Sequence record: PZ000615.1
Direction: 5' to 3' (one strand)
DNA length: 51,960 nucleotides
Source: a phage
Shown here: positions 1-51,960 of the stretch, one piece after another
How the letters are laid out: each line of letters opens with the position of its first letter
How positions within the stretch are numbered: position 1 is the first letter of the stretch
The notes under the pieces: generated by a model
Seen by the model: only the letters and a program-made list of their open reading frames with translations
Databases searched by the model: none
Told to the model about the DNA's origin: nothing
Position numbers and translations under genes: made by a program

Positions 1-355
1 CGTTCGAGTCAAATCTCAGGTCAAATCGGCAATAGCTTGCGCGAAATCCTTTGCACTTATTCCGGACGTAATCGCGATGAATAGCCATGGCACCGGACAC
101 GGAAATCATACCACGCTTGCGCCATTCGTAAAGTGTGGCGTGAGAGATCTTAATGGCCTTGACAAGGGCGGCGGGTGAGCCGTAGTATTCAATCACCTTT
201 TCGAGGCGATGCGCTAATCCGGCCTTTACCTCATCCTTCAGGACGTAATAGCCAGTTGGTTTCTTGCGCTCTTTCTTATCAGCTCCGCGTGAAGTCCCGT
301 TATTACCGTTGAGAGAACGTTTGTCTACCGCGCCGGATTTTGTCAGTTTCGTCAT
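1..355 (-). CDS. Partial CDS (start codon in window, 3' end beyond window edge): putative helix-turn-helix transcriptional regulator
   Basis: Minus-strand open frame from ATG at 355-353 with GAGGA Shine-Dalgarno upstream, no stop before position 1 (hence absent from ORF track); translation contains HTH-like segment ISHATLYEWRKRGMISVSGAMAI; divergent from helicase operon. Confidence 0.4.
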   Translation of the reverse strand, partial: MTKLTKSGAVDKRSLNGNNGTSRGADKKERKKPTGYYVLKDEVKAGLAHRLEKVIEYYGSPAALVKAIKISHATLYEWRKRGMISVSGAMAIHRDYVRNKCKGFRASYCRFDLRFDSN

Positions 356-450: not shown

Positions 451-2484
451 ATGACTATGAGTATTCAAAAGCAAATTGCCGCTCTTGATCCTGAGTACAT
501 GAAGAGGGTTAAGAGTCGATTCACGTTTGGCGATCTGGTTCCTTATGACTACCAGGTTGTCATGTACGGCGAGACGGCAAAGAGGATCGCCAATTACGAA
601 CATCCTTTCTACATCAAGGCGTCAGTGTCAGCAGGTAAGACCGTAGGTTTTGCCATGGTTGCTGCTCAATGCCAGGTCATGAATCTGCCTATGCTCATTC
701 TTGCTCGTCAGGCTGAGATTGTTCAGCAGGACAGCGAGGAACTTTCAAACTTTGGCGTGAAGAACTCCGTTTACTGCGCAGGGCTTAACACCAAGTCTGC
801 ATACTTCCCGATAGTAGTCGGATCTGAGGGTTCTGTTGCTAATGGCTTGGACAAGGCTCTTGCTGACTTTTATCCTATGGTTGTCGGCATTGATGAATGC
901 CATCAGGTAGACTGGGAGGACTTAGCTGAGGCCATTGAGAACAATGAATCAAGGGATCAGATGTCACGAGCGAAAGACAAGCCTTATCGCGTCAACGAGC
1001 ATCACGTGGCGGAGGATTACAAATTTCATGACTTCGATGTCGTCGAATATGGTACAGGGCGAGCACAGTACACAATCATCATCATGGAATTAATGCGTCG
1101 TTGCCGTGAGCGGTACGGTCGAGAGCTGAGAGTTTTCGGAATGACTGGATCAGAGTTTCGCGGCGTGGTTCCTATCCTGGTTGAAGATAAAAAGCATCGT
1201 GGTTTCTGGCGTGAGCAGGTCACTGACATCAACACATCTTACCTTGTTGATTTCGGCTCTGTTGTTCCGACAATATTTGGTGGCACTGACGGACTCAAGT
1301 ATGACCTTGATGAGTTCAAGGCATCCAGTCAGGATGGAACTGCTGATTTCGGCGCGAAAGAAATGAAAGCCATGGAGAAGAAAATTCATGAGTCAGCCAG
1401 CTTAACCAAACAGATCATGACCAAGGTTGCAGAAATGGCACAGACCAGGAACGCCGTACTGATAACGTGCGCGGGTCAGCGTCATTGTAAGGAGGCGGCT
1501 GAAGCGTTGCCACCTGGTAGCACTTACGCAATCATCACCGAAAAGACTAACGCCAAGAAGCGACAGCAGATCTTGGATGACGTAAGGGCGGGTAAAATAA
1601 AATACACCTTCCAGGTTATGGCTTTGACAACTGGCGTCAACGTTCCAAACTGGGACTTTAGCGTCATACTCCGCAAGATAGGGAGCTTGACACTCCTGAT
1701 CCAGTTGCTTGGGCGCGGGATGCGATTACTCAAAAAGCAACAGATTGAAATGGGTATGGTCAAAGAGGATCATCTCGTCTGGGACTTTGCCGGAACAATG
1801 GATGAACTCGGACAGCTTTACTTTGATCCGATTCTGGAGCAGTACCAATATCAGAGAAAAGGAGACCGCATCAAAGACCAGGAAAAATGCCCTATCTGTG
1901 GGACAATGAACAGTGGATTTGCTCGTCGCTGTATGCACCGAGACGAACACGGAAACCGTTGTGAGTATTTCTGGAAGTCTCAGATCTGCTCTGACATTGT
2001 CGACAAGCGAACCAACGAGATCATAAAGAAAGGTTGCGGAACCGAAAATGATGTGGTAGCAAGGGTATGCCGTTGCTGTGACGCTTCTCTAATCGATCCC
2101 AACGAGAAGCTATCCGGCAAGATGTACACGAAAAATGATTGGTGTGACGTTCTTGACTTCAAGGTCGGCATGACCAAGAGCCAAACCGGAATACTTTATC
2201 ATTACCGACTCAGGGACGCCGTAGGGGTTGAGTTTGACGCCGTGGAGAAGTTCTTCCCTGAGAGCGATAACAAGATCTGTAAAACGCTCTGGCGGTCAAA
2301 GGGGGTTACTCCTCACGTAGTCGGAAAGGACAACCGCAATTTACTCGGTCTGACAAAAAACGCTGTCAAGATTTTTAGCATGAAACACCTCATACTCTCA
2401 CCAATCCGAGTTACTCACCGGAAAAATGGGAAGGGTGAGGACATTATTAGCCGCAAAGACTTTGGAGGGGAAATTGATAACTGA
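451..2484 (+). CDS. SF2 (DEAD/DEAH-type) ATP-dependent helicase with C-terminal Cys-rich zinc-ribbon region
   Basis: Track ORF 403..2484; first ATG at 451; Walker A SAGKT, Walker B/DEAH-like GIDECHQ, C-terminal CPICG...RRC...RCCD cysteine clusters. Confidence 0.75.
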   Translation: MTMSIQKQIAALDPEYMKRVKSRFTFGDLVPYDYQVVMYGETAKRIANYEHPFYIKASVSAGKTVGFAMVAAQCQVMNLPMLILARQAEIVQQDSEELSNFGVKNSVYCAGLNTKSAYFPIVVGSEGSVANGLDKALADFYPMVVGIDECHQVDWEDLAEAIENNESRDQMSRAKDKPYRVNEHHVAEDYKFHDFDVVEYGTGRAQYTIIIMELMRRCRERYGRELRVFGMTGSEFRGVVPILVEDKKHRGFWREQVTDINTSYLVDFGSVVPTIFGGTDGLKYDLDEFKASSQDGTADFGAKEMKAMEKKIHESASLTKQIMTKVAEMAQTRNAVLITCAGQRHCKEAAEALPPGSTYAIITEKTNAKKRQQILDDVRAGKIKYTFQVMALTTGVNVPNWDFSVILRKIGSLTLLIQLLGRGMRLLKKQQIEMGMVKEDHLVWDFAGTMDELGQLYFDPILEQYQYQRKGDRIKDQEKCPICGTMNSGFARRCMHRDEHGNRCEYFWKSQICSDIVDKRTNEIIKKGCGTENDVVARVCRCCDASLIDPNEKLSGKMYTKNDWCDVLDFKVGMTKSQTGILYHYRLRDAVGVEFDAVEKFFPESDNKICKTLWRSKGVTPHVVGKDNRNLLGLTKNAVKIFSMKHLILSPIRVTHRKNGKGEDIISRKDFGGEIDN

Positions 2485-8954: not shown

Positions 8955-10535
8955 TTACCCCAGTAAGCGCGGGTTAACGTAAACGTCATCACCAATCAGG
9001 CAGACGTAACCTAATTCCTCAAGCTTTGGCAGCAGGTGATCACGAATGCGCTTTGTGACTCCAGACTGACCAAAGAAAGGTTTGATCTTGCGTACACCCT
9101 CATAGATTGAGCGGAACTTGATCACGCCTTTAGCGTTCTTGCCACGCTTGACGATGAAGTCAACGAGAACCCTCATCTCAGCATCGTCACCAGCATGACC
9201 AGCAGAGTTAGCTGATGAGAGATAAGTTTTGCTCAGCTCATAGAACATCGCAACAGCCTCTTGCATCGTGTCAAGGTCAACCGTCTTTGACTTCTGAGGG
9301 TTTGAGTTCTCACTCGACCAATTCCGGATCACGTGGATAACCGACGCAAGGCGAATCGCCTGTTTGTCAAACTTACCCATCGCACCGCGCAGCATCGTGT
9401 GAGAATACTTCCCACCATCCGCCAAGTGTGGCTCCATCTCCTGGCGTGCTCGGTTGAGATACTTCATCGCAGCCGCTCCCACCTTGAGCTTAATATCGCT
9501 CTCACTCATGATTTCGTGGATCAGCTTGTAGTATTTGGCGACAAGCTCTGAATCAATCGGGGTGTAAGTGCTTTCGCCTTTCTCATCGACGAACTTACGA
9601 CGACCCAAGTAAGACTCCTCACGAACCAGCAAGAAACGCTCCGATACACCGATACCACGCGAACCAGCCGCCATGATACCTTCTATCGTTTCGTCCTGAG
9701 CGATAACCGCAATCGCCCCCATAGCTACAAAGCTCATGTTGTTGTCAGCATTCGCACGAGCGATGGATACGTGACCGCTATCCCAGGCTTTAAGCACAAG
9801 TTCACTGTTCGTCTTGCGGCTCGCGTCCTGGTATGTCATGCCGAGCAATGAGTTGATACTCGTTGCCTCATCCGATATCACCGAGAAGTTGCCTTGTCGG
9901 TTGTTGATTCGAGCCAAGCCCTCCGGCGTGGTGTCGGATACAGGAAACACGATGTCACACATCTTTTCGAGTTTCTCCTCCAGATCCTCAAGCTCCTCGT
10001 AGAGGGATGCCATATCAGCTTTAGACTTCTCCCCCTTGAGTTCGGTCTTACACGCTGAGATCTTAGCCATTAAGCGTTTGCGCTCTTTCTTGCGCAGCTC
10101 GTTAAGGCGGTCAACCTCTGCGATCATTGGTTTGATTGCCATTGAGTTAATGGCTGATTTACCTGTCGATGGTGGCTGACTGGTTACGACGTAAAGCGCC
10201 GTTGGCTGATCTGTCCCGTGGTAGTCTACAGTGAATCGACCAAGCATAGCAGCAGACACGCACGCAAGAAAATGCATGTAAGCCGATGACTCTGGGAACT
10301 GAACAGAACGCGCCGCGTTTGCCGAAAGCTTTCCGACGATATCCAGATCGTTACCGAGAGAGATCACAGGATATTTGTCATTGCCGCCGTCAACGTCTTT
10401 AACCTCCGTCCAAAACGAGGACGAATGACGATACCCGTTAGCCTTTATTGCAACGCGCAGAGGTGAGATCCCCTCATTTTCTGCGATCACAATAATCTGC
10501 TGTGGCGTCATGGTCTGTTGCATATGGTCAAACAT
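8955..10535 (-). CDS. Large hypothetical protein with P-loop-like motif and coiled-coil segment; possibly replication-associated (DUF3987-like by recollection only)
   Basis: ATG with AAGGAG SD; PSTGKSA P-loop-like, SVISDEAT Walker-B-like, Glu/Lys-rich coiled coil ELEDLEEKLEK. Confidence 0.55.
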   Translation of the reverse strand: MFDHMQQTMTPQQIIVIAENEGISPLRVAIKANGYRHSSSFWTEVKDVDGGNDKYPVISLGNDLDIVGKLSANAARSVQFPESSAYMHFLACVSAAMLGRFTVDYHGTDQPTALYVVTSQPPSTGKSAINSMAIKPMIAEVDRLNELRKKERKRLMAKISACKTELKGEKSKADMASLYEELEDLEEKLEKMCDIVFPVSDTTPEGLARINNRQGNFSVISDEATSINSLLGMTYQDASRKTNSELVLKAWDSGHVSIARANADNNMSFVAMGAIAVIAQDETIEGIMAAGSRGIGVSERFLLVREESYLGRRKFVDEKGESTYTPIDSELVAKYYKLIHEIMSESDIKLKVGAAAMKYLNRARQEMEPHLADGGKYSHTMLRGAMGKFDKQAIRLASVIHVIRNWSSENSNPQKSKTVDLDTMQEAVAMFYELSKTYLSSANSAGHAGDDAEMRVLVDFIVKRGKNAKGVIKFRSIYEGVRKIKPFFGQSGVTKRIRDHLLPKLEELGYVCLIGDDVYVNPRLLG

Positions 10536-14386: not shown

Positions 14387-14650
14387 TCAGTCCTCTACTG
14401 TGAATTTGATCGGCTCTTTGCCGTCTGCTTTACGCTGCTTGTTAACCAGTGATTCGAACTTACTCATGCACTCCTTCAGATCTGTAAAGGTTGACGCCGT
14501 ACCCATAACCCGATACGACTCAACGTTTTTGCCGCGAACATAGTTGATAACCTTTTTGCAGATCTTGAACTTGTCACCCTTTGCGCTTGACTCCTGAAAC
14601 ACTGCGATTGTGGTTGAGCCATGCTTGAATGCTTTAGTGATGAATGCCAT
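14387..14650 (-). CDS. Hypothetical protein (first gene of leftward early operon)
   Basis: Track ORF; AGGAGG SD; preceded by promoter element copy. Confidence 0.5.
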   Translation of the reverse strand: MAFITKAFKHGSTTIAVFQESSAKGDKFKICKKVINYVRGKNVESYRVMGTASTFTDLKECMSKFESLVNKQRKADGKEPIKFTVED

Positions 14651-14674
14651 GAGAGCCTCCTGTTTCGATGAGAT

Positions 14675-14721
14675 GATTATGACCGATTCGAGACTGATTG
14701 GTTTAGCAAAAAGTGCTATTT
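14675..14721 (-). promoter_or_regulatory. Promoter-like cassette (minus orientation), first of leftward operon
   Basis: Minus strand AATAGCACTTTTTGCTAAA; CATAAT-like hexamer ~23 nt downstream; then CATCGAAACAGGAGG-ATG. Confidence 0.4.
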
Positions 14722-14902
14722 CTTGCAGATTGTCATAATGACTATATTGTTGCTGTATTGTTCATGATCGCATAACGCCTTTGCTCATATAGCAATAGTG
14801 ATTGTTGCTGTGATAGCAAATGTGTGCGCTCATTATTGCTTGATATGCATTAAGTTGAGAGGGGTAGAGATGGTGATTCGCTGTTCGCCTGATGACTGTT
14901 GG

Positions 14903-15445
14903 AAATTTCACGGAGGATTTGGGGAGGATTACGGAGGATTTCTCGGACTCAATTAGACGAACCTTTCAGAGCTACAGCTCATCTTTCTCCATCCCTGACT
15001 TGTCTGATATGCTACGGAGGGTTGCGGAGGATTACGGAGGATTTGCAATTCGGCTCTAGCCCTTGGTGCGCGTGGCTTGCGAGAGATTTACGCCGGAAAA
15101 TGTCGATTTCTCTATGGGGGCTGGTATAGATATACATAGAGAATGATGAGAAAGTGATGTGTCCATACGCTCACAGAAAAAATCCGATAACCCAATAATC
15201 AACATAATCCTCCGTAAACTATGAAACGATACCAATATACCAATAGAGAGATATAGTAATAATATATATAAAAACCCTTATATTACATATATATATAGTA
15301 TTATTATATACTATCTATACTGATTAGCTTGGTCATAAAATGAGCTGATTTTACGGAGGATGGTTCCGGCGCAATCCTCCGCGATTTCGATAAGTGTATG
15401 ATTTGCAAGGCTGCATTTACGGAGGGTATTTTCCGCAAAACACGT
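14903..15445. repeat. Iteron/AT-rich non-coding region A (candidate origin or regulatory hub)
   Basis: Tandem CGGAGGATT-like 10-11-bp repeats at 14911-14940 and 15015-15043, inverted/extra copies at 15206-15214, 15351-15362, 15371-15384, 15415-15428; AT-rich core 15225-15330; blocks shared with region B. Confidence 0.6.
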
Positions 15446-15458
15446 AAAAACAACCCAA

Positions 15459-15503
15459 AATAGCACTTTTTGCTAAAACCGCACCCCTGGCTTTTGCTAT
15501 TAT
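15459..15503 (+). promoter_or_regulatory. Promoter-like cassette, first of rightward array
   Basis: AATAGCACTTTTTGCTAAA 15459-15477; TATTAT 15498-15503; then CAACGAAACGAAAGG. Confidence 0.4.
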
Positions 15504-15539
15504 TATCTCAACGAAACGAAAGGCACAAAGGAAAACGTC

Positions 15540-15830
15540 ATGAAACTGGTACGCGAATCTATCAAGCTTGGCACTGAGTACAACGGCAAATGGTGGTTCA
15601 CTATCGACGGCAACGACGCCGATGAGCTGGAAGCTGCTCAAGATCGCCTTTCATCAATGGAGACTGGATCTCACACTGTTAAGGCTGACGGCTCACTGAA
15701 AGCCGAGAGATGGAATGACTACTGTGACGGATGCCCTTGTTATGAAGATGGTCACTCTGCTGGATACTGGATTCCTGTCGACATGGTTCCAGCATTCAAG
15801 GCAGCATGGAAGATTGCAAAGAAAGCCTAA
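15540..15830 (+). CDS. Hypothetical protein (first gene of rightward early array)
   Basis: Track ORF; stop TAA abuts promoter element. Confidence 0.5.
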   Translation: MKLVRESIKLGTEYNGKWWFTIDGNDADELEAAQDRLSSMETGSHTVKADGSLKAERWNDYCDGCPCYEDGHSAGYWIPVDMVPAFKAAWKIAKKA

Positions 15831-18083: not shown

Positions 18084-18346
18084 ATCAGTTGCTGCTTGAC
18101 ATGATCATAAGCAATCTTGATGTTGAGTGCTTAGTCATTCCATCAACTATGGAGTTCGTATGTCTCGACCTCGACGGCGATGTTTACGCATACGAGGGGT
18201 CTGTTTATCGTGACGATGACGAATGGGTCAACGAACCGGATGGGGATCTACATTACATCGGAACCATCTCCGGATTCAACTGTAGCAGGGTTTGGCGTGA
18301 ATGCCTGTTCACTGCTGACCAATGGCGCGAGGCTATCAGCAAATGA
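18080..18346 (+). CDS. Hypothetical protein
   Basis: Track ORF with GTG start after GAGGTG. Confidence 0.4.
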   Translation: MNQLLLDMIISNLDVECLVIPSTMEFVCLDLDGDVYAYEGSVYRDDDEWVNEPDGDLHYIGTISGFNCSRVWRECLFTADQWREAISK

Positions 18347-18540
18347 AAACCTTCGAGAGCAAAGAGTACCACGATGAGGACGGCGACGGCTTAAGCGTTG
18401 ACTGTCATGACACTCACGTTGAGATTATGACCTGGAGCACTACAGGCTGCGGCGTATTCTCCGATCCGAAAGTCCTGCGTGAGATTGCTGCTCAACTGGT
18501 ACGCGGCGCGGAAGAACTAGAAAGGCAGGCTAATTCATGA
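18343..18540 (+). CDS. Hypothetical protein
   Basis: ATGA coupling to upstream gene; track ORF 18322..18540 has an upstream extension. Confidence 0.4.
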   Translation: MKTFESKEYHDEDGDGLSVDCHDTHVEIMTWSTTGCGVFSDPKVLREIAAQLVRGAEELERQANS

Positions 18541-18803
18541 AAAAGGTTGACAAGGGTTTATCTTTCTTTGCTGCGCTGGCTATAGTGGCGGCTATCATCG
18601 GCGGAGCTACAGTGTCCGAGGGCTACAGGATTCACAAGCTGATCAACAGTGTCGATGATGACGGGAAAGTTATCTGTGCTCTGACTGGTAACGAGCGAAC
18701 GCGAACCTATCCGGTGCTGGCTGGTAAGGTAACGGTAATGCAAACAACCCAGGAACAAGAGTATTATTGCGCTCCAGGTAAATTATACTGGGTTGCGAAA
18801 TAG
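18537..18803 (+). CDS. Small protein with N-terminal hydrophobic anchor/signal
   Basis: N-terminal LSFFAALAIVAAIIGGA; stop TAG inside promoter element. Confidence 0.45.
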   Translation: MKKVDKGLSFFAALAIVAAIIGGATVSEGYRIHKLINSVDDDGKVICALTGNERTRTYPVLAGKVTVMQTTQEQEYYCAPGKLYWVAK

Positions 18804-25008: not shown

Positions 25009-25539
25009 ATGAAAGACCAACGCAGCGCGAACGAGCGCATTACAGAGCGCGGCAACTTCAAAGAGTTGTACCGCAAAAAGTACGGTGACGTGATCTCCCG
25101 AACCAAGATCTTAACTCCTGAGCAGCTTTTTGATATGGGTGTCGCCTATTTCGAGTGGGCTGAGGCGAACCACATCAAGGCGGCTGAAACTGCATCCTTC
25201 CAGGGTGAGGTTAGCGAGAGCCTGGTTCACAAGGTGCGAGTGTTCACCCTCAACGGGTTTGCCCTGTATGCCGGATGCACGCTCAACACTCTCAACCGAT
25301 ACAGATCCGAACCAGCATACGCTGAGGTGATGGAGTTCATTGACTCGGTCGTGTATGAGCAGAAATTCCAGCTAGCGGCTAACGGCATCGTTAACCCTGG
25401 CTTTATTGGCAAAGATCTTGGCATCGACAAACCAGCAAACATCACCGTCGAAACCATTTCCAGCTCTCAGAGCAGCGCTATCGGAACGGTTGAGCAGCAA
25501 ATGGAACAGGCAGTTTCTAACGTTCTTGACAGCCTGTAA
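25009..25539 (+). CDS. Putative terminase small subunit
   Basis: Position immediately upstream of terminase large subunit, size 176 aa, follows terminator plus extended -10 promoter. Confidence 0.5.
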   Translation: MKDQRSANERITERGNFKELYRKKYGDVISRTKILTPEQLFDMGVAYFEWAEANHIKAAETASFQGEVSESLVHKVRVFTLNGFALYAGCTLNTLNRYRSEPAYAEVMEFIDSVVYEQKFQLAANGIVNPGFIGKDLGIDKPANITVETISSSQSSAIGTVEQQMEQAVSNVLDSL

Positions 25540-34814: not shown

Positions 34815-35141
34815 ATGGCTAAGATGAAACTCACTATCAAAAAACGTCCCGATTTCAAACTCAAGCTTGAGCTGCAAATGCCTGACACTGATGACGTTGC
34901 GGTTGTAGTCCTTGACGTTGAGCACCGCAAAGCCAAGGAGCTTGCAGATCTGTTCAATGCTCCGGATGAAAAGCGTCCTGATGATGTAACTTTCTTCAAG
35001 GAGTTCGTGAAGGGGTGGGATCTGGAGGAGGAGTTCAACGACGAGAACATTAAGGAAGTCATTGAATGGTTCCCGAACATCATGGTTACGTTCACCTATG
35101 AGTACATGAAAGCTCTCACGGGTCAGCGAGTAAAAAACTAA
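34815..35141 (+). CDS. Tail assembly chaperone (lambda gpG-like)
   Basis: Acidic ~108-aa protein upstream of tape measure; slippery heptamer A AAA AAC at its 3' end. Confidence 0.6.
   Translation: MAKMKLTIKKRPDFKLKLELQMPDTDDVAVVVLDVEHRKAKELADLFNAPDEKRPDDVTFFKEFVKGWDLEEEFNDENIKEVIEWFPNIMVTFTYEYMKALTGQRVKN
35132..35138 (+). other. Programmed -1 ribosomal frameshift slippery site (A AAA AAC)
   Basis: Heptamer X XXY YYZ in G frame, 1 nt before G stop; -1 frame reads KKLKRAVFLLHQKPPTDAEL into T ORF. Confidence 0.55.
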
Positions 35142-35158
35142 AAAGGGCTGTTTTCTTA

Positions 35159-35461
35159 TTGCACCAAAAGCCGCCAACAGATGCAGAACTTGAAGCAGCC
35201 GGATTCACCAGGGCTGACTATGAGGAAGATGAGGATAATCTCGAAGAGGTGATCTTCTCTGAAGAAATGGCGGCATCATGGGAGGTGTTTACGGCAATGT
35301 CAACGCAATGGAGATACGCTCCGAACGGAGTTATTACAGGGCTTGATTATAATACCTTTCCAATGGTGGCAAAACTCTATAAAATAGAGGACGAGGAAAT
35401 AGCCTTTGAAGATTTACGAGTTCTTGAGCGTGCCACGCTCGAAATAGCTCACAAACAATAG
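35159..35461 (+). CDS. Tail assembly chaperone T-like extension, probably expressed as G-T fusion by -1 frameshift
   Basis: Open frame in -1 relative to G with no convincing own start; continuous with G after shift at 35132-35138. Confidence 0.5.
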   Translation: MHQKPPTDAELEAAGFTRADYEEDEDNLEEVIFSEEMAASWEVFTAMSTQWRYAPNGVITGLDYNTFPMVAKLYKIEDEEIAFEDLRVLERATLEIAHKQ

Positions 35462-35499: not shown

Positions 35500-38448
35500 A
35501 TGTCTGAAAATCAAATCGCTGGCTTGAGTATGTCAGTCGACGTCTCCCAGGTGAATGAGGCGACTAAATCACTTGCCAATTTTAAACAGGCCAACAACGA
35601 GACAAAGCGAAGCGTTGAAGATCTGGCGGCGGCTGAGGCAATGGCGCGAGCCAAGGCAAAAGCCCTTAAAGAGGAGCAGGAAAATTTAGCGGCTGAAACA
35701 CTGGCGTTGAAGCGCGGCCTTGACGGTATCGTTAAGTCTATTGATCCCACGGCTGGGAAGATGCAAAAGCTCGCTGAGGCGGCAAAGCAATTAGACCGAG
35801 CCTGGGAGAAAGGGATTGTTCCTGATAAGGAGTTTTTCCGCCTTGGTGAGGTGATTGATAACCAGTCAGCGAAGTTACGCAATGCACAGCTCGCACTGAC
35901 TGAGGAAGGTCGTGCGGCGATTGAAAACTCTAAGGCCAAGCAGCGAGCAACAAGCGCGAGCAAGTCATTCCTTGATAGCTTGAGAGAGCAAGCCGAAACG
36001 ACTGGAATGAGCAAGATCGAGTTGCTCGAATACAAAGCCGCGCAGATGGGCGTAACGGCTCAAGCCGCTCCAATGATTGCAAAGCTTAACCAGCAGAACA
36101 AAGCAATGAACGTTGCAGGGTTGAGCGCCGGACGTTATCGCATGGCAATGCAGCAATTGCCAATGCAGATCACAGATGTGGTGACTTCACTTGCCTCTGG
36201 TATGCCTGTTTGGTTGGTGGCTATTCAGCAGGGCGGTCAAATTAAGGACAGCTTTGGCGGCGTAGGCAATACGTTCAAGTTACTGTTACAGCAGATCACG
36301 CCGTTACGTGTGGCGATGGTTGGACTCGTTGGGGCGATGGCTGGGATTGGGCTGTCAGCATACGACGCATACAAGGCGAACCGTCAGTTCGAAACATCTC
36401 TCATTCTGACTGGTAATTACGCAGCTACGTCAGCGGGTCAGTTATCAGAGTTGACGTCTGAGCTGAACAAGAACAGCCTTTCAACAATCGGATCTCTTGA
36501 TAAGATTGCTGGCACTCTGGCAAGCTCAGGGAAATACACTCTGAACCAGATCAAGGAGATCACGGCAGTAACGGCGGATTGGTCAGAGGTGACTGGAGAG
36601 TCAACAGATAAGATCATTGACTACTTCGACGACATCGCAAAAGATCCGGTTAAAGGTCTGGCGAAACTTAACGAGCAGTTTAACTTTTTGGATAAGGGTC
36701 AACTGACCTATATCTCGAACCTTGAGAAGACCAAAGGGAAAACGGCGGCTGTTACCGAAGCGACGAAACTGTTTGCTGATGTAATGGAAAACCGAATCGC
36801 CAAGATCGCAGACACCGCGACACCTCTTGAAAAGATGTGGACTGACATTAAGAAGTGGTCGGCTGATGCGTGGCGTTGGGTTGGAGATCATACGATTGGC
36901 GCTCTCAACCTGATAACTGACGTTGTGGCTGGTACGATTGAGCAGATCAGATACCTGATTAACTCAGGCGACATGATGATCAGTCAATTCGTGGTTGACA
37001 CTGCGAACGTCATGAGCAAGATTCCAGGAACAAGCAACTTCTTTAAGGGGATCGCAAAAGAACAGCAGCAGTTTGTTGACGATACCAAGCAGAAGAACGC
37101 AGACCTGCTAAAGAGCATTGCTGAGCGTGACGCTCGAATCCGTAAGGGTGAGATGGGGTACATTGAAGCAGCCAAGAAGCGCGGAGAAGCTGACAAGCAG
37201 TACGCCGAAACCACAAAGGACGCGGTACGGAAAGAGGCTGAGCAGTTAGCCAAAAAGAACGCGGTTCGTAAGCAAGGAGTCGCAGACGGAATCAAAGTTT
37301 CGGAACAGTACCAGGCTGAGCTACTTGCTCTTGAAGCTCAACTGAAAGTTTTGCAGGATCACAAGGCGCTTGACGATAAGATTTCACAGCAGCGTAAAAC
37401 ATACTGGAACGATGTCGCCAAATTCCAGATTCTTGAGCAAGCAGCAAAGACCAGAGCACTGACGGCGGATGAGAAATCATTGTTAGCCAACAAGTCAATC
37501 ATCCTTGCATACTCTGAGCAGAAAGCTTTGCTCGGTGATAAGATCGTAGGCCAGGAGAGAATGAACGCCTTACTTGATAAGAGCGCGAAAACAATCCTTG
37601 AGCTGGATCAGAAAATGGCATCAATGGACGCCACTAAAGGCATGGGTGACATGGCTAAGCGCCGAGCTGATGAGATTGCCAAGATGAAAGCCGACTGGGA
37701 GAAAGGCGGGGGAAGTCTTGACGACAAGGCTTATCAGGATATGGAGAAAAAGCAAGTAGAGTATTATGAGCGAGAGGATTCATTGCGCTCTGACTGGTTG
37801 GCTGGCGCTGCGAATGGATTTGCGACTTGGGCGGAGAATGCTGGTAATATGTACGCTCAGACGGGAGCTGTTGCTCAGGCGACTATGTCGGGCATGACGG
37901 ATGAGATCACGAACTTTGTTACAACTGGCAAGGCTGACTTTGCAGACTTCACGGCTAACATCCTCAAGATGATCGCCAAGATGCTTGTCCAAATGGCTTT
38001 GCTTAACGCAATGAAAGCCGCGTTTGGTGGCACTGCTTTTGGTAACATGATGGGGATGTCATCTCATGCAAACGGCGGCGTTGTTGGTAACGGGTTCGCT
38101 CGTGGCGGTTATACCGGAAACGGCGGTAAGTATGAACCAGCCGGAATTGTTCACCGTGGTGAGTTCGTTTTCACCAAGGAGGCAACAAAAAGGATTGGTG
38201 TCGCAAACCTTCACAGAATGATGCGTGGTTACGCGAGCGGCGGAGTTGTTGGTGGCTCATCCTCTGGCGGTGGCTCTGGCGGCGGTGGTGTTGTGATCGG
38301 AGTTGGCGATATCAATATCAACGGGATGGGTGGAGTCGACCAGTCAGCAGCGAAAGGAATGGAACAGGGTGTTCGTCAGGTCGTCATGGATGTGCTTAAC
38401 AGAGAGTGCAGCCAGGGCGGTAGAATTTACCAGCTTGTGAGGGGCTAA
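35500..38448 (+). CDS. Tail tape measure protein
   Basis: ATG 35500 after GGAGG; ~980 aa, helical N-terminal two-thirds, Gly-rich C-terminal region, position after G/T. Confidence 0.8.
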   Translation: MSENQIAGLSMSVDVSQVNEATKSLANFKQANNETKRSVEDLAAAEAMARAKAKALKEEQENLAAETLALKRGLDGIVKSIDPTAGKMQKLAEAAKQLDRAWEKGIVPDKEFFRLGEVIDNQSAKLRNAQLALTEEGRAAIENSKAKQRATSASKSFLDSLREQAETTGMSKIELLEYKAAQMGVTAQAAPMIAKLNQQNKAMNVAGLSAGRYRMAMQQLPMQITDVVTSLASGMPVWLVAIQQGGQIKDSFGGVGNTFKLLLQQITPLRVAMVGLVGAMAGIGLSAYDAYKANRQFETSLILTGNYAATSAGQLSELTSELNKNSLSTIGSLDKIAGTLASSGKYTLNQIKEITAVTADWSEVTGESTDKIIDYFDDIAKDPVKGLAKLNEQFNFLDKGQLTYISNLEKTKGKTAAVTEATKLFADVMENRIAKIADTATPLEKMWTDIKKWSADAWRWVGDHTIGALNLITDVVAGTIEQIRYLINSGDMMISQFVVDTANVMSKIPGTSNFFKGIAKEQQQFVDDTKQKNADLLKSIAERDARIRKGEMGYIEAAKKRGEADKQYAETTKDAVRKEAEQLAKKNAVRKQGVADGIKVSEQYQAELLALEAQLKVLQDHKALDDKISQQRKTYWNDVAKFQILEQAAKTRALTADEKSLLANKSIILAYSEQKALLGDKIVGQERMNALLDKSAKTILELDQKMASMDATKGMGDMAKRRADEIAKMKADWEKGGGSLDDKAYQDMEKKQVEYYEREDSLRSDWLAGAANGFATWAENAGNMYAQTGAVAQATMSGMTDEITNFVTTGKADFADFTANILKMIAKMLVQMALLNAMKAAFGGTAFGNMMGMSSHANGGVVGNGFARGGYTGNGGKYEPAGIVHRGEFVFTKEATKRIGVANLHRMMRGYASGGVVGGSSSGGGSGGGGVVIGVGDININGMGGVDQSAAKGMEQGVRQVVMDVLNRECSQGGRIYQLVRG

Positions 38449-38450
38449 GA

Positions 38451-38801
38451 ATGGCGTTAGAGACTTTTACCTGGTGTACGCAGGTTCAAAATAACGGAGG
38501 CGCTGGAAGCGTCTCCGACAACGTGAGAGGCATTCAATTTGGAAATGGTTTTAGACAACTGGCAACGGCTGGTCTAAATACCATCCGAAGAGAGTTCAAT
38601 ATCGTTTACGGCGGCAAGAGCTGGGAGGACGTTTACAACTTTCTAACTCGCCATACCTACAAGCCGTTTATCTGGAAAGCTCCAGATGGTAAGCTTGGCG
38701 TGTTCACGGTTAAGAGCGGCAGCATTGCAACAAGGCCGATCAAAAACGGAATGCTTGAGGTGACTTGCCAGGTCAGCGAGGAATTCACGAGCGCACGATA
38801 A
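38451..38801 (+). CDS. Minor tail protein (lambda gpM-like)
   Basis: Pattern FTW...IQFGNGFRQLATAGLN...VYGG...FL..H.YKPFIWKAPDG matches recalled lambda gpM. Confidence 0.6.
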   Translation: MALETFTWCTQVQNNGGAGSVSDNVRGIQFGNGFRQLATAGLNTIRREFNIVYGGKSWEDVYNFLTRHTYKPFIWKAPDGKLGVFTVKSGSIATRPIKNGMLEVTCQVSEEFTSAR

Positions 38802-38873
38802 GTCAAAAGGCTACCTTTCGAGGTGGCCTTTTTTATTGTACAATGTTCGAACCATTTAACAGGAGGTCTTGAC

Positions 38874-39629
38874 ATGACGCCAAATATTAGCGAAAAGTTT
38901 GTTAACTGCTTGCAGAAGCTATACCCTGGAGAGATTCTCACACTGGTGGAGGTTGACGGGACGCGGTTCGGTGCGCAGGTTTACCGATTCCACAACGAGA
39001 ACATCCAGTTCACACAGGAGGAGTTACTCCTCGCAACCTCAACCGGAACCCTGCCGGACAAGGTTATCCGGTTTAACGGTAATGAGTTCGGAGGTCGTCC
39101 GTTCGGACTTTCCGGTTTCACTATGTCGAGCGATGGAACTCCCGACAAGCCTCAGCTAACCCTGTCAAATATTGACTCTCAGGTTTCAGCCCTAATCCGA
39201 TCCTACAACGGCATGATGCAAGCCAAGGTCACTATCTGGATTATCGTTCGGGACTTGCTGAAAGACGACTGGACTGTTGACGAGGGAGATTTCCGCAAGC
39301 TGGTTTACTACGTAGAGCGGCCTAACTACTGCGATCACACACGTGCAACATTCGATCTGACATCTCCATACGATATGGATGGGATTATGATCCCAGGTCG
39401 ACTATCTCAAAGTGTTTGCTACTGGGCGCAACGCGGATGGTACAAGAGCGGAAAGGGTTGCATGTACAACGGTCAGAACGGATACTTTGACAAGGACGGG
39501 AATCAGGTATCAGATCCGTCACAGGATTATTGCCCTGGCACAGTGAACGCCTGTAAGCTCAGATACAAAGAGGGTGAGCTTGATTTCGGCGGGTGCGCGG
39601 CAGCTTCATTAGTTCGGAGGAGATCATAA
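38874..39629 (+). CDS. Minor tail protein (lambda gpL-like)
   Basis: ATG 38874 after AGGAGG; C-terminal Cys cluster CPGTVNAC...GGC as in gpL. Confidence 0.6.
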   Translation: MTPNISEKFVNCLQKLYPGEILTLVEVDGTRFGAQVYRFHNENIQFTQEELLLATSTGTLPDKVIRFNGNEFGGRPFGLSGFTMSSDGTPDKPQLTLSNIDSQVSALIRSYNGMMQAKVTIWIIVRDLLKDDWTVDEGDFRKLVYYVERPNYCDHTRATFDLTSPYDMDGIMIPGRLSQSVCYWAQRGWYKSGKGCMYNGQNGYFDKDGNQVSDPSQDYCPGTVNACKLRYKEGELDFGGCAAASLVRRRS

Positions 39630-48546: not shown

Positions 48547-49218
48547 TTAGTCGAAGCTCTCAATATCTTGAGGCTCTGGCTGTTTTTTTGATTCAGGTTC
48601 GGATTTTACAGCATCCTTAACCTTGTTTACAGCTTTCTTTTGAACGGCTGTAAATCCACCTGCTGATCCGACAGTTAGAGCTGCCTTGCGTTTCTCATAG
48701 CGTTCCTGGATGATTGGCTTATCAACAGGGCTTGAAGCGCTCCAGGCTTTACCAAACTGCTCAGTCAACTCATCCATACTCTCACACTTGTCGAGTCGCT
48801 TGTTCCAGTCCTTGGCGCTCATCACTGCAATTTGCGCGTCATCGTCTGCCTGAGATAAACCAAGCGCAGCAACCAGGCCGTAACGACGGGCGTATGTGAA
48901 AGCAGATCCCATTCCCTGAGGGTCAGCCTTTACTACAGGGAGAACAGCCAAGTAAGAGATGAACTGACCTGATACGTGTCGTATGGTGGTTATTACGCGA
49001 ATCTCTTTGCTGTTGCTCTCTTCAGACATTGACTGCTCAATCATCAGCATCTCGCTTTCAAGCGGAGGAGTCACAGTGTCAAGAACGCTGTCAAGAGTAG
49101 CATATTTACCCTTACCAGCTCCGCCGTTAACCTTGTCTTTCAGAACCTTTACGAACTTCTGTCGCGCTCGAAAGATCGCAGGGAAAAGTTCAGTTGTAAC
49201 GTTTGATTGCATTTTCAT
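48547..49218 (-). CDS. erf: Erf-family single-strand annealing protein
   Basis: Segment GMGSAFTYARRYGLVAALGL typical of Erf family; adjacent to SSB and exonuclease. Confidence 0.6.
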   Translation of the reverse strand: MKMQSNVTTELFPAIFRARQKFVKVLKDKVNGGAGKGKYATLDSVLDTVTPPLESEMLMIEQSMSEESNSKEIRVITTIRHVSGQFISYLAVLPVVKADPQGMGSAFTYARRYGLVAALGLSQADDDAQIAVMSAKDWNKRLDKCESMDELTEQFGKAWSASSPVDKPIIQERYEKRKAALTVGSAGGFTAVQKKAVNKVKDAVKSEPESKKQPEPQDIESFD

Positions 49219-50355: not shown

Positions 50356-50399
50356 AGTATACCCGATCTCATTCGTTGCGTTTAGCAAAAAGTGCTAAT
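50356..50399 (-). promoter_or_regulatory. Promoter-like cassette (minus orientation) upstream of exonuclease-erf-ssb operon
   Basis: Minus strand AATTAGCACTTTTTGCTAAA then TATACT ~21 nt downstream, then CAGGAG SD and ATG 50325. Confidence 0.4.
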
Positions 50400-50407
50400 T
50401 TTCACTC

Positions 50408-50860
50408 AACGGAGGATTGCGGAAATTTACGGAGGATTTGAAATCTGGCTCTAAGCCTTGCCACTACTGGATTTGTCGACAATCTACGCCGGAAAATGTC
50501 GATTTTCTCGCTCTATAGACACCAAAAACGCAGAAAACAGGCACAAAAAAAGATCCAATAACCCAATAATCAACATAATCCTCCGTAAATAAATAATATA
50601 CATCACATAGATAATGATAATATCTATATATATTAGACACTTACGTATATCTAAAGGTTGAAAATAGCTCATTATTTGAACGAAATTCGCGGAGGATTGA
50701 TCCGGCGTAAATTCCGCAAATTCTGTAAGTAACTGATTTTGTTGAATGCAATTGCGGAGGATTTTTTCGTGAATCTCCCGTAAATCGGCCTTGTTTAAGT
50801 TTGTTAAATCTTTTTCCGGAGGATTGCGGAGGATTGCGGAGGGTTTGCGGAGGATTTTTC
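50408..50860. repeat. Iteron/AT-rich non-coding region B, paralogous to region A
   Basis: CGGAGGATT copies at 50410-50440, 50575-50588 (inverted), 50688-50700, 50750-50765, four tandem copies 50816-50856; AT-rich core 50580-50660; shares TACGCCGGAAAATGTCGATTT and ATAACCCAATAATCAACATAATCCTCCGTAAA with region A. Confidence 0.6.
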
Positions 50861-50887
50861 CGGCGTAAAAAAACCCGCCGAAGCGGG

Positions 50888-51829
50888 TTAGTTTTTGCGG
50901 TTGATTAGGACTATCGGATCGTAAAGTGCTCGCTTGCAACCGGATTTGAATCCTGAGCGGTCATCATTTGGAATGATAACTTTCAACTCCCTGTCATCTG
51001 CCATGTATAGAGTATCAAGATCGCCTGACGCACAAGCCACTCTAAGCTCACGCTCTCCGGTATACCTGTATGCGACAATCTCAAGGTTGCTAGGCTCAAT
51101 GCACGCCCAACACTCTTGGCCTGTAGCCTCATGAACTCGGACGGCATCAAACCACGAATTAACAAGGTATATGGCTTTGTCTGTCGATCCTACCTTTATG
51201 ACTGCTCCTCTCGTGTAGTCTCTGGCATAGAACCGCTCATCGCCAAGCTCATCTATAAATAGAAGGTTGCAGTATTCATCATCAAGATCATCTCCCTGCA
51301 CGAGCTGCATCGGGAGTACGTGAAAAACGCTCTCAGCTCCATTCTCAAGGGTTTTCACGCCTACATCGAATGATTCACCTATTAGCCCCTCAAACATCGT
51401 CAGAGGCGTCTGCGCTCGCTTCTCAGTCCTATCCAGAACCGCCTGGCATTTGTCATGCTCGGCAGTAGCTCCAAAGCTGTAGCCTGGGTCTTTCGCGGCT
51501 CTCTTGTTCTGCTTGATTACATATTCCTGAGGAACCTTGCCGAGGAATCTACCGAGGATGTTAATGCATTCACTGTAAGGCTCGCCGGACAACTTCATAA
51601 GCCAGCCAATCCCTTTGTCAGCTCCGCAATTGTTGCAATAAGCCCAACCGTCACCGACCTTGTTGTCCTTTTTGTTTGTCCAACGAAATCTATCCTTACC
51701 GCCACAGTGAGGGCAGTCCTGATGCTTGCCGTTGAAGTATTTCGAGTTCAGGCCGCAAATGCTTTGGAGCGCGTCTTGCCACATGTTAGCCATGTATGGG
51801 ATCACGTCCTCCTCCTGGTACATCATCAT
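50888..51829 (-). CDS. DNA primase (zinc-ribbon + TOPRIM-like)
   Basis: N-terminal CPHCGG...RFRW...CNNCG zinc ribbon; C-terminal acidic motifs GDLDTLY and IIPNDDRSG. Confidence 0.55.
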   Translation of the reverse strand: MMMYQEEDVIPYMANMWQDALQSICGLNSKYFNGKHQDCPHCGGKDRFRWTNKKDNKVGDGWAYCNNCGADKGIGWLMKLSGEPYSECINILGRFLGKVPQEYVIKQNKRAAKDPGYSFGATAEHDKCQAVLDRTEKRAQTPLTMFEGLIGESFDVGVKTLENGAESVFHVLPMQLVQGDDLDDEYCNLLFIDELGDERFYARDYTRGAVIKVGSTDKAIYLVNSWFDAVRVHEATGQECWACIEPSNLEIVAYRYTGERELRVACASGDLDTLYMADDRELKVIIPNDDRSGFKSGCKRALYDPIVLINRKN

Positions 51830-51854: not shown

Positions 51855-51900
51855 GGCGCGATCATAATAACCGCGCCCGTGTGGGATTGTTTAGCTTTTA
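51855..51900 (-). promoter_or_regulatory. Promoter-like cassette (minus orientation, variant) upstream of primase
   Basis: Minus strand AATAAGCACTAAAAGCTAAA; hairpin GGGCGCGG...CGCGCCC in spacer; TATTAT; GGAGA SD. Confidence 0.35.
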
Positions 51901-51960
51901 GTGCTTATTTTACTACTCGGAGCATTTCTCGACGGTCACAGCGAGTGGTTAGAGCCTTGC

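Follow-up and report, generated by a model that had tools for sequence, protein, structure and literature searches.

Two paralogous iteron modules as candidate replication origins of a T1-like phage

What is the role of the 889-bp gap (positions 14651-15539, hereafter region A) that lies between two divergent early operons in sequence PZ000615.1? This stretch of 51,960 bases, referred to below as the window, is the genome of a T1-like phage (Drexlerviridae, genus Eclunavirus), complete and circularly closed, and a preliminary description of it had proposed that the gap holds an origin of replication. That proposal emerges as the best-supported explanation, one that we infer from a paralog of the gap elsewhere in the genome (region B), a layout found across the family, inverted repeats, minima of duplex stability, the predicted build of a phage helicase and modules of the same type in distant phage contigs. 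The right two-thirds of region A (about 14905-15431) is probably a phage-specific bidirectional replication origin, one of two in the genome, and its paralogous twin in region B (about 50400-50870) may be either a second origin or an origin-enhancing partner, as crr is in phage P4.

Iterons and the A+T-rich core of region A

Region A is a true intergenic gap, with a leftward gene (14387-14650) on one side and a rightward DUF5417 gene (15540-15830) on the other, which bears out the earlier statement that about 0.9 kb of non-coding DNA separates divergent operons here. The motif CGGAGGATT, with at most one mismatch allowed, occurs 35 times in the window, as opposed to 11.1 +/- 3.2 times in shuffled sequences, none of which (0 of 100) reached 35. 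Region A holds nine such units (14911-15381), and its density of the hexamer CGGAGG (10.1 per kb, compared with 0.53 per kb outside the two clusters of units in the genome) is about 20-fold that of the remaining genome (Poisson 2e-9). Six units lie to the left of an A+T-rich core and three to four to the right. On the left, the units form two plus-strand arrays: array 1 (14905-14941) consists of CGGAGGATT, GGGAGGATT and CGGAGGATT at spacings of 11 and 10 bp, and array 2 (15012-15044) of CGGAGGGTT, CGGAGGATT and CGGAGGATT at spacings of 10 and 10 bp. Tandem Repeats Finder independently detected arrays at 14905-14941 and 15013-15043 with a period of 10 and 3.1-3.4 copies, which, together with the counts in shuffled sequences, confirms the tandem 10-11-bp repeats first noted at 14911-14940 and 15015-15043. 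The additional copies that had been reported in both orientations were located as well, at 15206-15214 (minus strand), 15354 (plus), 15373-15381 (minus) and 15420 (plus).

The core (15230-15330), a candidate DNA-unwinding element, contains the 80-bp window (15234-15313, z 7.07) at which duplex stability is lowest in the whole genome. It had been described as 100 bp of near-pure AT, which is correct as to its A+T-rich character and overstated as to purity: the A+T content is 85% over those 80 bp and at least 88% in 60-bp windows at 15249-15319. The left edge of the core is adjoined by a conserved block (15182-15218, minus strand) whose final part, 15206-15218, is the inverted iteron AATCCTCCGTAAA, and the right-hand iterons (15350-15431) comprise three elements, namely TTTACGGAGGATG (15350-15362, plus strand), TTCCGGCGCAATCCTCCGC (15364-15382), with the minus-strand unit 15373-15381 inside it, and TTTACGGAGGGTA (15416-15428, plus strand). 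Positions 15350-15361 are a perfect 12-nt inverted partner of 15207-15218, 131 bp apart, so that the pair spans the core. Another conserved block, TTTACGCCGGAAAATGTCGATTT (15087-15109), includes CGCCGGAA, which is inverted relative to TTCCGGCG at 15364.

Scans for DnaA boxes and sites for integration host factor (IHF), suggested in the preliminary description, found neither in either module: no DnaA box (TTWTNCACA) is present in region A or region B, with one in the whole window, and no IHF consensus occurs in either region. This absence fits a phage-encoded initiator. Long (17-22 bp) iterons and iterons inside a gene were likewise not found in the window, nor was there an O- or RepA-type match among the flanking genes and replication candidates scanned.

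The second module upstream of recE

Another cluster of nine CGGAGGATT units (50410-50856) lies in the gap between the primase gene and recE, 16 kb from region A. Alignment of the two gaps identifies 15012-15440 and 50405-50770 as paralogs that share, in the same order, the iteron triple, TTACGCCGGAAAATGTCGATTT, ATAACCCAATAATCAACATAATCCTCCGTAAA, the A+T-rich core and CGGAGGAT.G.TCCGGCG; the paralogous stretch opens with array 2 in region A. The module of region B (50400-50870) is situated between the 3' end of the primase gene and the recE promoter repeat (50381-50397). It consists of an iteron triple (50410-50438), a block (50484-50506) shared with 15087-15109 of region A, an inverted iteron (50577-50585), an A+T-rich core (50586-50665), single iterons at 50690 and 50755 and a four-unit array (50817-50856). 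The block at the left edge of core A, 15182-15218, matches 50553-50589 at 32 of 33 positions. Core B comes second in the genome for low duplex stability (z 5.96, with the third window at 3.5), and it is spanned by an inverted pair of 9 nt, 50577-50585 and 50690-50698, 104 bp apart. Thus, the two units that lie closest to the core have opposite orientations in region A and region B alike.

Conservation of the module pair in related phages

The nearest deposited relatives of the window are the Enterobacter phages Ec_L1 (Drexlerviridae, Eclunavirus) and Phc, which were also the only phages that could be aligned to it at the DNA level; other genera share the layout without the sequence. Ec_L1 is 82-87% identical to the window across most of the genome. 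Both modules are conserved in the two phages. The genes that flank region A lack counterparts in Ec_L1, which makes the region an island of conservation. Among the window, Ec_L1 and Phc, iteron columns are invariant at 92% in region A and 98% in region B, compared with 69% and 77% for the other columns outside the core (Fisher tests of iteron versus other columns, 2e-6 for A and 4e-7 for B) and 61% and 80% for the columns of the core. The A+T content of the core is held at 81-85% (83-85% for core A in the relatives) despite the drift of its sequence, as would be expected of an unwinding element. This pattern of conservation fits putative protein-binding sites placed around a region that is constrained in composition. 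The region B array of Ec_L1 (about 1750-1800) has five units as opposed to four in the window and Phc, owing to a clean 11-bp insertion, so the array varies by whole units. Of the unannotated gaps that fall wholly within the Ec_L1 record, gap A (893 bp) and the recE-primase gap (574 bp) are the largest two.

We extended the comparison beyond Ec_L1 and Phc to T1, Rtp, TLS, NJS2 (Webervirus) and KLB19 (Vilniusvirus). The module pair was found in all seven relatives at the same two positions, one between the divergent early operons (gap A) and one upstream of recE (gap B). In the window, Phc, T1, Rtp, NJS2, KLB19 and TLS, the two least stable 80-bp windows of the genome are the cores of gaps A and B; for Ec_L1 the scan covered bases 1-50000, which include gap A only, and gap A was its minimum. 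The z-scores of the cores in T1, Rtp, TLS, NJS2 and KLB19 are 5.0-6.3, compared with 3.4-3.6 for the next best window.

Each core is flanked by short repeats whose word is specific to the lineage and present in both gaps of a given genome. The word is CGGAGGATT in the window, Ec_L1 and Phc (Eclunavirus), ACGATTAACAC (three tandem 11-bp units) and GTGTAACA/GTGTTACA in T1, GTTACGCC and TCCGCGGAA in Rtp, GTGAACA/TGGAACA in TLS, GTAAGAT in NJS2 (13 of the 19 genome copies fall in the two gaps) and TTGTTAT/ATAACA in KLB19; those of T1, Rtp and KLB19 were chosen by visual inspection together with k-mer counts. Inversion of the repeats across the core is seen in the window, in Phc and in most of the other modules examined, the exceptions being gap B of TLS, which has no inverted pair, and gap B of Rtp, where the pair is not an iteron word.

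Within a genome the two modules can be far more alike than modules of different genomes. The top high-scoring segment pair between A and B reaches 113-146 bits in the window, Rtp and NJS2 (three of six genomes), against a median of 34 bits and a maximum of 55 for module pairs from different genomes; the scores of T1, TLS and KLB19, 44-57 bits, do not depart from the between-genome range. The modules of NJS2 (350-429 and 35086-35165) are mutually inverted, whereas those of the window are co-oriented, with gene order and orientation the same in both phages, which argues for a function that does not depend on orientation. Judged from these comparisons, the module pair appears to evolve in concert within a genome, to diverge fast between lineages and to work in either orientation, as would be expected of cis sites read by a lineage-specific trans factor.

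A sequence of the form ATACCC(C)TCCGC occurs once per module in KLB19 (gaps 38342-39082 and 18108-18607) and once in gap A of Rtp. It carries the CCTCCG core that is multiplied in the Eclunavirus arrays and may represent an ancestral single site. Outside the family, a search of IMG/VR with the iteron pair returned Ec_L1 as the only true relative (the other four matches were single, and the two inspected were coding), and 100,044 species genomes searched for the iterons yielded 17 single matches in unrelated taxa, consistent with chance. No satellite or island with CGGAGGATT iterons was thus found in these two collections.

If region A were transcribed, its units, each of which includes GGAGG, could serve as Shine-Dalgarno-like ribosome decoys or form part of a structured RNA, and the region does lie downstream of possible promoters. 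Such an RNA role is extremely improbable. The units are found on both strands, the relatives keep the same layout with words that lack GGAGG (GTAAGAT, GTGTAACA, GTGAACA), and folding is weak and inconsistent, being modest in core A (z -2.1) and absent in core B (z -0.4). Rfam gave nothing at the gathering score in the whole window and nothing even at E-values up to 1 in 14600-15600. A conserved cruciform was also considered and rejected, as the shared GAAAAT/ATTTTC hairpin is not significant. The open reading frames that lie wholly inside region A, including 14899-15129, are interrupted by stops or frameshifts in Ec_L1 and/or Phc; those tested are therefore regarded as non-coding, as had been suspected for 14899..15129, and a protein-coding role of the region was rejected. 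The open reading frame at 15417-15641 is antisense to the start of the DUF5417 gene, which is supported by Pfam.

Modules of the same type in distant phages

The window encodes a DUF3987 helicase (8955-10535, minus strand; Pfam 2.5e-41), and we examined contigs from unrelated phages that encode homologs of this protein at 31-39% identity. Five contigs were informative, two others having ended at the start of the operon. In all five, the least stable window (z 3.8-5.2) falls in the divergent gap that directly precedes the helicase operon, and on its flanks there are repeats in both orientations that are peculiar to the contig (GGGGTGGG, TAGGGAAG/CTTCCCT, CTCGGGGC, ATGCCCAC and TACCCTA). Region A corresponds to these modules in position, since the helicase gene belongs to the leftward operon (14650 down to 8403) at whose head the region lies. 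Computationally, the strongest reason to suppose that module and helicase may function jointly is that they occur together in unrelated genomes.

One distant contig (about 4010-4050) has, in addition to the module upstream of its DUF3987 operon, two perfect DnaA boxes, TTATCCACA. Host DnaA may also be recruited by some phages with helicases of this family.

The DUF3987 helicase as a candidate iteron-binding protein

DUF3987 proteins have been described as MCM-like superfamily 6 (SF6) phage helicases with a C-terminal winged helix (PMC4889955), and one member has been demonstrated to be an active helicase (PMC11724360). The AlphaFold model of the window's helicase, built from 52 homologs, has a pLDDT of 91.5, and the top 50 Foldseek matches of this model include MCM2-7 subunits only. 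Its C-terminal 99 residues (about 8958-9254) make up a separable domain that matches its own PHROG family and is predicted to fold as helix-strand-helix-helix-strand-strand, that is, as a winged helix. The best matches of this domain are the winged-helix domains of MCM4 and MCM8, with weak E-values (0.015 at best). The MCM-like and winged-helix assignment, predicted here from the model, re-derives the published DUF3987 classification. Fold comparison alone made it possible: searches of the helicase against solved structures with phmmer and with a profile gave no match, and a word-indexed protein search with the 77-residue winged helix gave a single near-identical match. Longer homologs of the helicase bear DnaG-type, PriCT or DnaB domains at the N terminus.

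In comparisons between genera, the winged helix has changed more rapidly than the motor core (for example, 44% versus 72% identity, window versus NJS2), which is only suggestive of a link to the change of repeat word. We propose the helicase, acting via its predicted winged helix, as the favoured candidate for the protein that binds the iterons; the preliminary description had already named the product of 8955..10535 among its candidate binders.

Promoter repeats and transcriptional control

Region A is composite, and its left third (14702-14891) is not part of the repeated module. It begins with a copy of a T1-like 21-nt promoter-associated repeat, TTTAGCAAAAAGTGCTATTT (14702-14721, minus strand), which serves the leftward operon. 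Another copy (15458-15477, plus strand) serves the rightward operon; downstream of it come a -10-like TATTAT hexamer, an ACGAAACGAAA leader and, at 15540, the ATG. The two copies form a perfect 20-bp inverted repeat. The repeat, aaATAGCACnnnTTGnTAAAA, counts 14702-14721, 15458-15477 and 50381-50397 among its members, and the CGGAGGATT units are not members. It has been described for TLS and T1, with its function given as unknown (PMC11447400). In the form TAGCAC-N5-TGCTAAA, it is present in 19 copies in the window (at 370, 3995, 6786, 11279, 12833, 13750, 14718, 15461, 15831, 17491, 18801, 19103, 21156, 21983, 22793, 30950, 33947, 46027 and 50397), all co-oriented with genes. Most copies have a TATTAT, CATAAT or TATAGT hexamer about 20 nt downstream, often an ACGAAACGAAA-type leader, and in most copies a start codon about 60-80 nt (~76 nt) downstream. 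The centre of the palindrome in the repeat would lie about -41.5 from the inferred transcript start, which is the position of a class II activator site; this could explain why few sigma-70 promoters have been found in T1-like phages.

The main rival of the origin reading starts from the promoters beside the modules. It holds that a phage DNA-binding protein, such as the Cro-like helix-turn-helix regulator encoded beside the primase, uses the CGGAGGATT units as operators or enhancers and sets the activity of the adjacent early and recE promoters, and that the A+T-rich core is an UP-like or bending element. Both modules do adjoin copies of the promoter repeat (14702, 15461 and 50381), and module B is upstream of recE in every genome, whatever its other neighbour. 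We nevertheless consider a transcriptional function on its own rather unlikely, given that the remaining 16 promoter repeats work without such a module, that direct repeats at helical spacing combined with an inverted pair 100-130 bp apart at the stability minima are not an operator layout, and that A and B are co-oriented in the window but mutually inverted in NJS2 despite the same gene order. Moreover, sigma-70-like sites found by a consensus scan of the gap are no commoner than in shuffled sequences, and the same type of module accompanies DUF3987 helicase genes in unrelated phages. Transcriptional and origin roles are in any case compatible, and origins often overlap promoters. Terminators in the gap were likewise in no excess over shuffles, the sole one being that of the primase gene (50872-50889).

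Palindromes and DNA packaging

Between the leftward promoter repeat and array 1, region A carries three 15-bp palindromes of the form TTGC-N7-GCAA (14781-14795, 14805-14819 and 14836-14850) and a conserved block, GTTGAGAGGGGTAGAGATGGTGATTCGCTGTTCGCCTG (GTTGAGAGGGG/GAGAGGGG...GTTCGCCTG; 14854-14891). The palindromes have no counterpart in region B, and the block too is confined to gap A. Palindromes of this type are also present in gap A of T1, Rtp and NJS2 and are absent or diverged in Phc; the block is nearly invariant in Ec_L1 and Phc and in T1 its gap A counterpart is GTGAGAGGGGGGATCTAGTGTTACCAGGTTCGCCTGG. The T1 equivalents of palindromes and block lie at 48800-48836 and 1-90 of the T1 record; the 2.8-kb terminal repeat of T1 begins at position 1, inside the palindrome cluster. 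In T1 the left third of the gap thereby corresponds to the left end of the genome and the pac region. The palindromes and the conserved block, rather than the iteron module, may be a pac site or an operator.

In phages P1 and SPP1, pac consists of repeats flanking a central region, and the iterons could by the same token be the recognition site of the small terminase, with the first headful cut made in or near the core. The T1 record and its terminal repeat begin inside the gap equivalent to region A, and, as with the repeat word, there are differences between genera in the N-terminal part of the small terminase. Packaging of T1 proceeds as a single series. The pac site of T1-like phages has been placed in this untranslated region (PMC7718038), but packaging has been described as starting from one pac (PMC11447400), and the presence of the module twice per genome argues against its being that site. 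The T1 end itself lies in the cluster of TTGC-N7-GCAA palindromes confined to gap A, outside the iteron and A+T module, the small terminase gene terS is 9.5 kb away (25009-25536), and in other phages the module tracks helicase genes, not terminase genes. The Drexlerviridae papers searched gave no usable pac coordinate. On this evidence, it is very unlikely that the module is a pac site.

Gene content around the modules

The genome is closed by the gene for the Cro-like regulator (136 residues, minus strand), which runs across the end and the start of the window (1-343 joined to 51893-51960) and therefore shows that the two ends join. The protein has a weak match to P22_Cro in Pfam and belongs to phrog_2856. 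In the Ec_L1 record, this gene is split by the record ends and is unannotated. The order of genes around region B is SNF2-type helicase (451-2484, plus strand), regulator, primase, a 560-bp gap, and then recE, erf and ssb, which are on the minus strand. The primase (50888-51829, minus strand; phrog_510 DNA primase) possesses a zinc ribbon of the primase-helicase type (PF08273, 1.9e-8).

The phage encodes Dam-like methyltransferases. GATC occurs 289 times in the window (5.6 per kb, compared with 3.9 per kb expected from length alone) and is depleted in region A, which has a single copy in 889 bp.

A proposed route of initiation and its weak points

We infer that the helicase binds the repeats, that the core melts and that replication starts at the modules. 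In the route that we envisage, the MCM-like DUF3987 helicase would read the CGGAGGATT units via its C-terminal winged helix, and helicase complexes would assemble on the opposed units that flank the core. The easily melted core would then open, the helicase would load itself without a DnaA-type initiator, and the neighbouring primase would prime synthesis in both directions. The full version of this scheme, in which both modules are working origins, opposed helicase complexes load themselves with neither a separate initiator nor a loader, the twins are kept alike by concerted evolution and the repeat word co-diversifies with the winged helix, is a tentative one and somewhat less likely than not. 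Were it true, T1-like phages would be the first virulent enterobacterial phage family shown to use initiation in the style of SaPIs and MCM, and each lineage would replicate only its own DNA in mixed infections.

Several observations weigh against the origin reading. Region A is 4.1 kb upstream of the helicase gene, and region B adjoins the primase gene, not that of the helicase. The repeat words of T1, Rtp and KLB19 are fuzzier than that of the window, and no sharply hypervariable domain that tracks the repeat word was seen in the helicase, primase, regulator, terS product or SNF2-type helicase. Both modules adjoin promoters, which leaves room for a purely transcriptional role, and the T1 genome end, with its pac region, shares a gap with module A (PMC7718038). 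GC skew changes sign at region A; since it tracks gene orientation, it is uninformative as to replication versus transcription. Finally, the literature searched reports no replication origin for a T1-like phage. The 2024 re-annotation of TLS stated that iteron-like repeats are found nowhere in TLS and gave no origin (PMC11447400), and the 2020 paper on phage SU57 likewise did not find one. Contrary to the TLS paper, iteron-like repeats are present in both gaps of TLS.

T1 belongs to the seven phages of the original T series, and its relatives, the T1-like phages, are both frequent contaminants of laboratories and fermentations and candidates for therapy. The conserved module pair probably represents a pair of origins that is new for T1-like phages in the papers searched. 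It provides two precise, short candidate origins per genome across seven genera, together with a named candidate reader, the winged helix of the helicase. If this assignment is true, the model of a self-loading MCM-like initiator-helicase would extend from staphylococcal islands to a large family of virulent phages, and the modules would supply cis elements for engineering or blocking T1-like phages, for example, origin-decoy plasmids against contaminants.

Comparison with known replication systems

Repeated initiator sites beside an A+T-rich stretch are also seen in the lambda origin and in iteron plasmids. The lambda iterons, about 19 bp long, are located within the gene of the initiator, and host DnaB is recruited to them by way of the P protein, whereas the units of the window are 9-11 bp long and located in non-coding DNA.

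Phage P4 resembles the window in having two separate cis regions, ori and crr, with the same short repeat; both are bound by its primase-helicase, the alpha protein. The P4 type I repeat, TGTTCACC, is resembled by the TLS and T1 words GTGAACA and GTGTAACA. The zinc ribbon of the window's primase is shared with P4-alpha-type primases, and a note in the T1 record likens the T1 primase to alpha proteins. In P4, however, primase, helicase and DNA-binding domain are combined in one protein with a superfamily 3 (SF3) motor, whereas the window encodes the primase and the MCM-like (SF6) helicase as separate genes.

The closest likeness is to the replication modules of staphylococcal pathogenicity islands (SaPIs) and SCCmec elements, with the initiators Rep and Cch. 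SaPI origins have 6-12 short iterons, half of them on each side of an A+T-rich region and in opposed orientation; the Rep helicase recognises these iterons with its C-terminal winged helix and, probably in the form of two hexamers, needs neither ATP nor a loader to load itself (PMC9371898). Like these systems, the window has two opposed sets of short iterons around an A+T-rich centre and no DnaA boxes there, and their hexameric AAA+ winged-helix helicase with a separate or fused primase has its counterpart in the predicted MCM-like helicase and the primase of the window. Homology of the window's helicase to Rep or Cch was not detectable at the sequence level. The units of the window are 9-11 bp long as opposed to 5-6 nt in SaPIs, there are two paralogous modules per genome, and the hosts differ, the window being a virulent enterobacterial phage and SaPI a staphylococcal island. 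In SaPIs the origin directly follows rep, whereas neither module of the window directly follows the helicase gene. By analogy with these systems, the best-supported assignment is that the modules belong to a known kind, the iteron and A+T-rich origin of a self-loading initiator-helicase, with a layout that appears to match that of SaPIs in all but position.

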